Part shown: positions 16,305-18,125 of the stretch, piece after piece
Numbering within the stretch: position 1 is the stretch's first letter
Layout of the letters: every line of letters starts with the position of its first letter
Position numbers and translations under genes: made by a program
Assembly (NCBI GenBank): GCA_053919585.1
Contig: CM132795.1
Direction: 5' to 3' (one strand)
Source of the DNA: Euprymna scolopes
Taxonomy: Eukaryota
Length of the DNA: 64,000 bases
Notes under the pieces: generated by a model
Told to the model about the DNA's origin: nothing
The model's database searches: none
What the model saw: the letters and a program-made list of their open reading frames with translations, nothing else

Positions 16305-16500
16305 TATGATGGTTGTATATTTTTGAGATGAATATTAGTAATCATTTTTTGTATTATTTGAATTGTTTGGACTATTGTTTTCATCTTGGTTGAATAGAAT
16401 TGAGTGCGAAAACAACCAAGATGAAAATAATATTCCAAACAACCCAAATAATACAAAATAATTACTAATCCTTATCCCAAAAATATACAGACGTCATATA
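16305..16500. repeat. Inverted repeat of Penelope-like terminal sequence
   Basis: ...GACTATTGTTTTCATCTTGGTTG / CAACCAAGATGAAAATAATATTCCAAAC...; same family as the sequence following the hammerhead-like motif at ~18125. Confidence 0.7.
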
Positions 16501-16917
16501 AAAAACACGGAATGGACCCGAATTTATTTTTTTTTTAAATATATATAGACTCAGCGCTATTTGAATTGTGAAAGCAAAAAGAAACAAATATTTTTCACCA
16601 TTCACCAATAACATTTAGTCTAGAGTTGTAAGCCATGTTTAATTTCAGAACAGTTTCCGATTAGTTAGTTGTTCTACACAAGTCCTGGAGGTGAGTGGTT
16701 CTCAGTAGACAGTTCTTGAGTTGGAAGCCACAAAGCAAAAGATTCTTCATTCCGTGTTGACACGAAGAAAACATATGCGAAGTTGCTAAAGAAAAGGTTT
16801 AATCTTTATGTAGCAATTCTGGTTTCTTATTGGTTGGTAGCAGAACATGAATTAATTTGATTCATCAGTTCCTAGCAGCATCATTTATGAATAGAATCTC
16901 CCGATTATGCGGGATCA

Positions 16918-18052
16918 TACCCCATTCTACTTCTTGTATGATGGGATGTGTCTCCTAGCGGCTTCGGCTGCATGGAGACAGGGTAGTACCAGTCAAGGAT
17001 TCGTCACTTGACACTCAGCCCAACAGGTGAGGGGCCGGGAACCGGCCCAGCACCTGTTGGACTGAGGTACACCGCCTGAGTAACACCTAGGAGGTCCACC
17101 CTCCCAGGCCATGCCACCGGGCTTTCCGGTGGGGCAAGTTTATTGCTTGCTGCCTGAGGCGCCCCGACCGGGGAATGCCGACGGGGTTACTCAGGCAATT
17201 TTTAAAATTGCAGGAGTGCCCCTTCTTTAGGGGAGCCTGCGGGTATCCCACTTTCCGGCCTTGTGCCACATTTTTCTGATGTGGGCAGCAAATAAATATC
17301 TACCCCATTATAGTTCCTTTATGATGGGATGTGTCTCCTAGCGGCCTCGGCTGCAGGGAGACAGGGTAGTACATGTCAAGGATTCGTCACTTGACACTCA
17401 GCCCAACAGGTGAGGGGCCGGGAACCGGCCAAGCACCTGTTGGACTGAGGTACACCGCCTGGGTAATACCTAGGAGATCCACCCTCCCAGGCCATGCCAC
17501 CGGGCTTTCCGGTGGGGCAAGTTTATTGCTTGCTGCCTGAGGCGCCCCGACCGGGGAATGCCGACGGGGTTACTCAGGCAATTTTTTAAATTGCAGGAGT
17601 GCCCCTCCTTTAGGGGAGCCTGCGGGTATCCCACTTTCCGGCCTTGTGCCAAATATTGCCGATGTGGGCGGCAATTAAATATATACCCCATTATAGTTCC
17701 TTACTCGTGATGGGGGATGATCTCCTAGCGGCTTCACCTGCAGGGAGAAAGGGTAGAGTACTCGTCAAGGATTCGTTCTTGACACTCAGCCCGACAGGTG
17801 AGGGGGCCGGGAACCGGCCCAGCACTCGTCGAACTGAGGTACAACGCTTGGGTATCACCTAGGAGGTCCACCCTCCCAGGCTATGCCACCCGGCTTTCGG
17901 GTGGAGCAAGTTTATTGCTTTCGCCTGAGGAATGCTGATGGGGTGACCAGGAAATTTTTGTTGCGGCAAGAGTGCCCCTCCTACTCTCCACCTTCCGGCC
18001 TTGTGCCACATTTTGCTGCGGTGGACAGCAAATATATACCCGGTTATAGTTC
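16918..18052 (+). repeat. Tandem array of a 383-bp highly structured GC-rich unit (starts 16918, 17301, 17684, plus ~16 bp of a 4th); candidate non-autonomous retroelement RNA
   Basis: 383-bp period for the first two units, ~353 bp for the third; about 10 hairpins per unit including UUCG loops; compensatory changes between copies. Confidence 0.85.
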
Positions 18053-18079
18053 AAAGATGTTGCAACATCCAGTGTGAAT

Positions 18080-18125
18080 GCACCTGAAGACGGTCGGAGG
18101 TTGCATCGGTCGAAACGTTATGTAA
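18080..18125 (+). ncRNA. Penelope-type minimal type I hammerhead ribozyme motif (partly degenerate)
   Basis: gcac CTGAAGA c ggtcgg..tcggtc GAAA CGTT: core boxes and palindromic minimal helix III (AACGTT); helix I has a mismatch. Confidence 0.55.

Follow-up and report, generated by a model that had tools for sequence, protein, structure and literature searches.

A folded 383-nt repeat of Euprymna scolopes is probably a SINE-like retroposon that inserts site-specifically into Copia LTRs

A stretch of 64,000 nucleotides from Euprymna scolopes (GenBank assembly GCA_053919585.1, contig CM132795.1), referred to below as the window, contains a short tandem array of a strongly folding 383-nt unit. 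The unit is very probably a SINE-like retroposon that is copied in trans by a site-specific LINE of the L1/Tx1 type, here called LINE-A, with the array built up from three separate insertions. The feature picked out by a first-pass annotation is real, but its mechanism is other than the one proposed there; the unit appears to work like SINEU-3, a retroposon of crocodilians. The hairpins of the unit have likely been kept for RNA stability and RNP assembly rather than for catalysis.

The array and its host LTR

TRF places a head-to-tail array with a period of 383 nt at 16917-17930 (score 1643), which confirms the three units seen at first pass, and the contrast between a GC-rich array and an AT-rich background also holds (57% GC in bin 17001-18000, about 33% in the surroundings; 56% for the unit). 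Unit 1 (16918..17300) and unit 2 (17301..17683), both 383 nt long and on the + strand, are 95% alike and belong to a young subfamily; unit 3 (17684..18036, + strand) is 77% alike, with two deletions of 15-16 nt, and is a decayed member of an older subfamily. Each has its best match at another locus: 97.7% for unit 1 (94.6% to unit 2), 98.4% for unit 2 (94.6% to its neighbour) and 86.4% for unit 3 (versus 81.0% to its neighbour). What had been taken for some 16 nt of a fourth unit (18037..18052, + strand) is the right target-site duplication, 16 nt in length, which matches empty sites and runs directly into the end of a Copia LTR.

Unit 2 opens with a 5' hairpin (17301..17328, + strand), whose left arm is derived from the target (TACCCCATTATA) and whose right arm is encoded by the element; at other loci, the equivalent of this hairpin is the insertion site of a second LINE, LINE-B. 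At its other end lies a 3' tail shared with LINE-A (17640..17683, + strand; further copies at 17257-17300 and 17997-18036), consisting of GGCCTTGTGCCA, a covarying hairpin and a hexamer of the AATAAA/ATTAAA type.

The host is a solo Ty1/Copia LTR on the minus strand that spans 16619-18067 and is interrupted by the array. Its main part (16619..16917) is the flank of about 300 nt shared across loci, and its 5' end (18053..18067) starts with TGTTGCAAC... on the minus strand. The same LTR bounds elements of 5.4-5.7 kb that encode gag, protease, integrase and RVT_2 domains on the minus strand (10-kb stretches), and the full Copia has a primer-binding site by one LTR and a purine tract (PPT) by the other. 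Since the LTR belongs to a minus-strand Copia, the unit lies antisense in it, about 30 nt from the LTR 5' end. A 5-bp duplication with at most one mismatch was found for 12 of 15 solo LTRs tested, all at loci other than that of the window.

Both host LTR types contain a reverse CCAAT box (ATTGG; 16829..16833, + strand) of putative function. The TATA-box position (16884..16894, + strand), 31 nt before the insertion point, is degenerate in the window (TTTATGAATAG, as against TTTATAAATAG elsewhere). Of 39 type-A LTRs, 37 have TATAAA 31 nt ahead of the junction, and the spacing is 31-32 nt in 10 of 11 type-B LTRs; this TATA box may act as an antisense promoter. The junction sequence TCATACC fits the initiator consensus. 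The TATA element, mutated at the window locus, is in part a palindrome, and Copia might instead use it as a sense promoter of its own. Two observations on reads concern the LTR itself: in run X21 a pile of 340-490-fold on one strand covers 16642-16723, near the far LTR end, and reads show an LTR variant with an internal repeat of 49-51 nt.

A dispersed family at one LTR site

Copies collected genome-wide and aligned form a dispersed family. Unit 2 has 2,987 first-look candidates in the 5.9-Gb genome (925 contigs), of which 40 were scored, and unit 3 has 4,712; neither figure is a copy number. The 59 loci examined comprise the 30 best hits of unit 2 and 29 of unit 3, and truncated copies are under-sampled because these loci are best BLAST hits. 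They yielded 103 units, 80 of which were used for the structure alignment. A 24-nt pattern had no match among metagenome contigs.

Arrays hold 1-5 units, joined always by TACCCCATTA plus a variable 3-7 nt, and the flanks common to loci extend about 300 nt upstream and 31 nt downstream. By script, the immediate upstream context of the 59 loci is a type-A flank (39), a type-B flank (11), a LINE 3' end (4) or 'other' (5), and by eye the last group resolves into three LTR variants and two off-target insertions (L006, L027). The unit thereby sits at one Copia LTR site, antisense, or directly behind a LINE inserted there, at 57 of 59 loci. Short, non-coding and dispersed, it is flanked by target-site duplications: the junctions to the left and right of the last unit have 10-18 nt in common at 31 of 35 loci, and unrelated sequence is duplicated around the off-target or atypical single units at L006 (15 bp), L024 (16 bp) and L027 (11 bp), as read by eye. 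Two of these three also show AATAT slippage at the 3' end, again by eye, and both features would be expected from target-primed reverse transcription. Off-target copies begin inside the target motif and carry no further LTR sequence.

LTRs retrieved by LTR sequence alone (n=29) include 10 with units and 19 that are empty. Four full-length Copia elements were found, two with one filled and one empty LTR and two with different arrays in their LTRs; units are present in the 3' LTR only in L031 and L032, and sister LTRs carry different arrays in L034 and L035. These last patterns, together with off-target copies that have duplications of 11-16 bp and the use of the same site by an endonuclease-bearing LINE with a shared tail, make it very unlikely that the unit was inserted during Copia reverse transcription, by an RT that switched template near the PPT to a co-packaged antisense RNA, with subsequent LTR hitchhiking, even if the site does lie 15-30 nt from the start of plus-strand synthesis, host sequence by the PPT has the same inverted repeat as the unit's head and L016 duplicates LTR end, PPT and unit in its 5' LTR. 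Occasional hitchhiking of units in Copia LTRs may nevertheless occur alongside retroposition into the site.

Several details of the host deserve mention in their own right. The Copia inverted repeat CCCCATTATA / TATAATGGGG surrounds the purine tract (L031:820-850, L004, L008, L018). Some unit heads read TGATGGGGAAGGTC, and since this is close to the host's TAATGGGGAAGTC the unit head may derive from the host antisense hairpin. In the 5' LTR of L016 (1441-1500; = L039), the LTR end, purine tract and inverted repeat are followed by a unit and then by the LTR end again, which could reflect either a template switch or antisense RNA that read through from a 3' LTR. LTRs that are otherwise 90-98% identical (L077-L105) are hypervariable in the 4-5 nt that follow TACCCCATTA, at 12-17 nt from the LTR start, and even the sister LTRs of L031 differ there; these differences are possibly scars of cutting and repair, or an escape from targeting.

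Serial insertion

For 72 of the 75 arrayed units, the closest relative lies at another locus and not among the neighbours. The arrays are therefore best read as serial insertions, made after Copia integration, and both concatemer copying and local amplification are disfavoured because they predict neighbours as closest relatives. Newer units tend to lie upstream (16 versus 7, with 7 ties; p 0.09), which is a trend only, and the proposal that the oldest unit is always last was rejected on this count. Satellite DNA was likewise rejected, as it needs long, locally homogenised arrays, rather than 1-5 units that mostly resemble units elsewhere.

The first-pass annotation had suggested a structured RNA that is propagated as multimers and possibly carries a self-processing motif. 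Its first element stands: the unit behaves as a structured RNA under selection and is retrotransposed. Multimers of a self-processing or circular RNA find no support, given neighbours that differ in subfamily, junctions that copy a genomic target empty in 19 of 29 LTRs, an autonomous LINE with the same 3' motif that stacks at the site, and searches that found no known ribozyme. An unclassified ribozyme is conceivable, but no part of the anatomy calls for one.

RNA fold and covariation

When folded against shuffled sequences, the + strand reaches z -10.2 (unit 1) and -7.6 (unit 2), with 0/100 shuffles as good. The reverse strand of unit 2 also folds (z -8.7), so that folding alone leaves the strand unfixed. 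C(UUCG)G loops and G-U pairs are marks of RNA-strand folding, and those in the unit point to a + strand RNA.

A fold of 126 pairs is kept in 93% of cells across 80 units, compared with 36-48% pairing in slid controls and 0/500 shuffles that reach any of five measures; this fold was taken from one member, and five of its pairs were fixed after covariation had been seen, which biases the figures in its favour. As described at first pass, the unit is folded over almost all of its length, but the long GCCTGAGTAAC/GTTACTCAGGC helix needs a variant of the unit 1 type (GCCTGGGTAA in most copies). A typical copy folds with CCTGGG/CCCAGG and GCCTGAG/CTCAGGC. RNAalifold gives a poor consensus for the 80 copies (-17.9 kcal/mol, 38 pairs), because decayed copies break pairs, and a single-copy fold was therefore counted instead.

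The compensatory substitutions noted at first pass are borne out, all three named swaps recurring across the 80 dispersed copies. Pair swaps between subfamilies include A-U 41/G-C 27, G-C 54/C-G 12, U-A 56/C-G 20, G-C 40/A-U 32 and U-A 47/A-U 30. In a tree-aware G-test one pair passes with E near 0 (E<0.1) and one has about 0.6, both in the 3' hairpin; the other pairs are confounded with subfamily splits. Pairing is kept by 51 of 80 variants present in at least 4 copies and by 53 of 239 singletons (Fisher p 2e-11), and since shared variants keep pairing more than singletons do, source elements are apparently selected for the fold as genomic copies decay. In the 5' hairpin, the element arm tracks the target-derived arm: a unit's own arms pair at a mean of -11.1 kcal/mol versus -9.8 kcal/mol for shuffled pairs, a value matched in 0/300 shuffles. 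A further pairing suggested earlier, of GGGTAT with ATACCC across the unit junction, finds no support, since GGGTAT is not conserved (GGGTAT in 38 of 103 units, GGGGT in 15, neither in 50) and is missing from unit 3.

In principle, hairpins could act in single-stranded DNA, the unit being a tyrosine-recombinase or rolling-circle DNA element at an att-like site. Junction arms that flank a variable 3-7 nt spacer and the folding of both strands would suit such an element, but its probability is close to negligible: the arms covary as base pairs instead of being fixed like protein sites, G-U pairs and UUCG loops favour a + strand RNA, off-target copies show tail slippage, and the long elements that occupy the site, in L040, L041, L043 and L044, are LINEs that encode an RT.

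Searches for ribozymes and Pol III heads

The remark that the unit lacks a CUGANGA/GAAA core agrees with a descriptor search, in which no hammerhead core was found on either strand of the 59 loci. In Rfam scans, the unit matched no family: no ribozyme was reported at E<=10 in the window or at E<=1 in 8 loci, only chance miRNA and lncRNA matches, and no tRNA, 5S, 7SL or snRNA (U1/U2) match to the unit in the window and the 8 loci. ARAGORN found no tRNA genes in the 8 loci, a search that a very decayed head could escape. Descriptors for hammerhead, HDV-like, twister, hairpin, pistol and twister-sister ribozymes, which are weak in being home-made from consensus motifs and used without positive controls, gave nothing above shuffled controls save a loose twister; the HDV descriptor matched 4 of 59 loci versus 2 of 59 shuffled, a background level. 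The loose twister pattern on the minus strand (35/59 loci versus 12/59 shuffled) was rejected, as 0/51 matches close P1 and P2. The unit 3' end was also read as HDV-like, and this too was dropped, because GGGTAT lacks conservation and the strand proposed for P1 has a local partner with which it covaries (helix 15). T5 runs occur inside 95 of 103 units.

The view taken at first pass was that of a retrozyme-like, self-cleaving and possibly circular RNA with an unclassified ribozyme, whose multimers are reverse-transcribed. We consider this extremely unlikely, given the neighbours that are not closest relatives, the junctions that copy a genomic target found empty elsewhere, the results for hammerhead, HDV and twister motifs and for Rfam ribozymes above, and a partner that is an APE LINE, not a Penelope element. 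On the other side stand the strong fold and the circumstance that poly(A) libraries would miss circles, which may thus exist unseen in the read data. The 383-bp tandem unit and its short arrays match the 150-450 bp of non-LTR retrozymes, but it lacks a type I hammerhead and has 56% GC, versus less than 50% for retrozymes in the accessible part of PMC7229834. As for the class, the unit shares its 3' tail with LINE-A and has none of the tRNA, 7SL or 5S heads with a Pol III promoter of a canonical SINE.

Outside the array, the window contains a hammerhead-like core at 18084-18119 (CTGAAGA...GAAACGTT), which adjoins AT-rich repeats that recur inverted at 16359-16480. Its Stem II did not close in the descriptor and Rfam gave no report for it; we take the region to resemble a decayed Penelope-type remnant.

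LINE-A, the likely partner

Two loci run on at the unit junction into long elements, a 6.0-kb LINE in L044, flanked by a 16-bp duplication of the target, and a 6.7-kb LINE in L043. The family of the former, LINE-A, ends at TACCCC in 28 of 29 copies by script and in the 29th by eye; the sequence that follows is the LTR end in 16 and a unit in 7. In its last 55 nt, an AT-rich stretch separates GGCCTTGTGCCACATTTT from AAATAAATAT, and the unit shows the same order, the shared 3' motif being short (about 18-22 nt plus the AT-rich end; BLAST E 0.03 within 30 kb). Ten LINE-A loci were fetched whole: four lie directly behind a type-B LTR with duplications of 11-17 nt, and two are tandem LINE stacks. 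At G000:C14:36461468-36473968, three LINE-A 3' ends 6,113 bp apart form a tandem stack of the autonomous element.

The frames of L043 and L044 match zinc-knuckle, APE endonuclease, RT and C-terminal zinc domains, weakly in L044 and with broken frames, and LINE-A ORF1 is zinc-knuckle-like by eye. LINE-A is 42-50% identical to an intact homologue over its length (L043 and L044 together 42-63%), and the best solved match of that homologue is human L1 ORF2p (E 9e-73; R2, 2e-23). The partner LINEs accordingly have Tx1 traits, namely an APE, an RT and a C-terminal zinc domain closest to L1 among solved structures, and a target preference; searches for relatives returned no named Tx1 reference, and protein-cluster look-ups no name. 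With its end at the same site and its share in the unit's 3' motif, LINE-A is likely to be the L1/Tx1-type partner of the unit. Target specificity and U2 links would fit the Tx1 clade as described in PMC4494074.

A further LINE family (L041:422-4991; upstream flanks of L054 and L065) is about 73% identical to LINE-A and has the same end site and GGCCTTGTGCCA. TTCGTC or CTCGTC follows the target motif directly in LINE-A 5' ends (L176, L181, L184) and in older unit heads (L058, L062, L089), a short hint that the unit head and the LINE-A 5' end may share an origin.

LINE-B and the head of the unit

LINE-B, the 6.7-kb family of L043 (L136-L175, e.g. L172:1198-7887), has its junction 7 nt deeper (TACCCCA|TTA). 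In 23 of 29 copies it is followed by the remainder of a unit, and all 23 belong to the 25 copies at >=90% identity; of the other two close copies, one is followed by an empty LTR end and one by other sequence, and the 4 distant copies have no unit. Compared with the LTR occupancy of 10/29, this linkage has p 4e-10 (an occupancy taken from one LTR subfamily). Seven of the ten LINE-B loci fetched are near full length, and four of the seven have duplications of 14-24 nt of the local hairpin variant, so that the insertions are independent. The 5' hairpin of L043 is a duplication of the unit's head and not the LINE's own. LINE-B appears to target the head of the unit itself, and a LINE that prefers a SINE head was not found in the papers searched.

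The LINE-B 5' end resembles that of U2 snRNA. One distant LINE-B relative (L165:1865-1900) stops exactly where a U2 5' fragment begins, at the first base of U2 (Rfam E 7e-4, under the gathering score); the fragment is followed by other sequence, and the relatives in L162-L164 end at other targets.

Within the same SINE-like class, LINE-B or another related LINE might be the main mobiliser. The LINE-B tail (CCCACTT..GGCCCTGGTGCC..TAAATATC) is related to that of LINE-A, as a weaker version of the motif, and LINE-B is tightly linked to units, but it inserts 7 nt further in with longer duplications, and units and LINE-A both join at |TACCCC; we regard it as an unlikely main mobiliser and retain LINE-A.

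Transcription and proposed mechanism

Transcription of the family is observed. In four oligo-dT/poly(A) raw-read runs, coverage of the unit bins is low, reaching some 45-fold in each direction; the reads come from both strands, and neither their starts nor their ends pile up within the unit. No discrete monomer is seen in these libraries, which would miss circles. AATAAA or ATTAAA ends 83 of 103 units, and the junctions seen have no poly(A).

In the mechanism that we propose for retroposition by LINE-A, RNA polymerase II would start at the target, 31 nt behind the antisense-strand TATA box of the LTR, and the RNA would begin with target sequence, folded into the 5' hairpin. Owing to the AATAAA/ATTAAA that closely precedes the junction, the RNA would terminate within the duplication downstream. 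Its 3' tail, shared with LINE-A, would be bound by LINE-A ORF2p, which would nick CA|TACCCC and use the target-matching RNA end to prime reverse transcription; this would account for the lack of poly(A) at junctions. Annealing of the target-derived 5' end to the upstream flap would then yield uniform full-length copies, and each insertion would regenerate the target as a target-site duplication. Overall, the TATA spacing, the off-target copies that begin within the target motif, the hexamers and the poly(A)-free junctions would all be explained by a Pol II RNA with its start in the target and its end in the duplication downstream.

More tentatively, and with slightly less than an even chance, the whole system could be a four-tier nest on a borrowed antisense promoter, in which a Copia LTR hosts LINE-A and its folded, head-less passenger exactly at the start site of that promoter, and LINE-B, of U2-associated Tx1 descent, has switched its target to the passenger's 5' hairpin and become a LINE specialised on a SINE. 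LINE-A and passenger RNAs would both begin and end with target in this nest, and guide both junctions by base pairing.

Significance and comparison with known systems

A false lead for a new ribozyme is removed by these results, which point to a way of forming short tandem arrays of structured RNA units that needs no concatemers. For the mechanism of target-primed reverse transcription, and for targeted insertion, interest attaches to site-specific APE LINEs that mobilise a short RNA in trans, and the four-tier nest, if true, would be a compact natural system for site-specific APE integration with a ready-made cargo RNA. Because about a third of the sampled LTRs are occupied, the family may affect Copia activity. 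The fixed TATA spacing and the LINE that prefers the unit head are the parts most worth pursuing.

No account of the 383-nt family was found in the literature searched; Repbase, Dfam, most subscription papers and supplements lay outside its scope, and an automatic name there is possible. Ceph-SINEs have a tRNA head, and none was found in the unit (8 loci). PMC8967140 lists L1-Tx1 elements as expanded in coleoids and SINEs as scarce in decapodiforms, and the text examined does not mention the unit family; the accessible portion of PMC4758252 adds no information on it.

Like metazoan non-LTR retrozymes, as far as the available text of PMC7229834 and bioRxiv 10.64898/2026.07.22.740005 describes them, the unit forms short arrays of 150-450 bp repeats and is structured and non-autonomous. 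Unlike them, it has no type I hammerhead, a higher GC content, a specific site, heterogeneous neighbours and an L1/Tx1-type rather than a Penelope partner.

R2 has a restriction-like endonuclease, an rDNA target and an HDV-like ribozyme, none of which applies to the unit. Both are promoterless, would use the target for transcription and carry target sequence in their RNA, the co-transcribed target sequences of R2 being cited in the part of PMC4494074 available to us. From the same source, Tx1L, which inserts in Tx1D of Xenopus, and Keno, which inserts in U2 snRNA, are APE-type LINEs with a fixed target in another repeat, as here. The present case differs in having two LINE families, of putative Tx1 affinity, whose sites are 7 nt apart, the first within the Copia LTR and the second within the inserted unit.

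The closest precedent in the accessible text of PMC4494074 (Kojima 2015) is SINEU-3 with its LINE, Tx1-Mar. In crocodilians, 313 of 347 SINEU-3 copies lie in Mariner-N4, with a 16-nt duplication and tandem copies by sequential insertion; SINEU-3 has no Pol III promoter and is mobilised by Tx1-Mar. In the same account Tx1-8_Crp and Tx1-4_AMi prefer LTR retrotransposons, and some Tx1 families have U1/U2 heads. The unit and SINEU-3 are both shorter than 500 bp, associated with a Tx1-type LINE, almost always inserted antisense in another transposon, with a 16-nt duplication, and arranged in tandem by sequential insertion, and both contain internal oligo-T, have no Pol III promoter and are proposed to be transcribed from the flanking target. 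The unit has a different target, a point in the Copia LTR whose distance from a preceding TATA box is fixed at 31-32 nt in both LTR types; it has no detected snRNA-derived head, the U2-like head lying on LINE-B, and it shares a 3' motif with its LINE. It is also folded nearly end to end with compensatory changes, appears to be targeted by a second LINE and resides in an invertebrate. The unit is not a SINEU, because it has no snRNA head, nor a canonical SINE, because it has no Pol III head. In two divergent LTR types its insertion point follows a TATA box by 31-32 nt, a spacing that would answer the question raised by SINEU of how a short retroposon without a Pol III head is transcribed.
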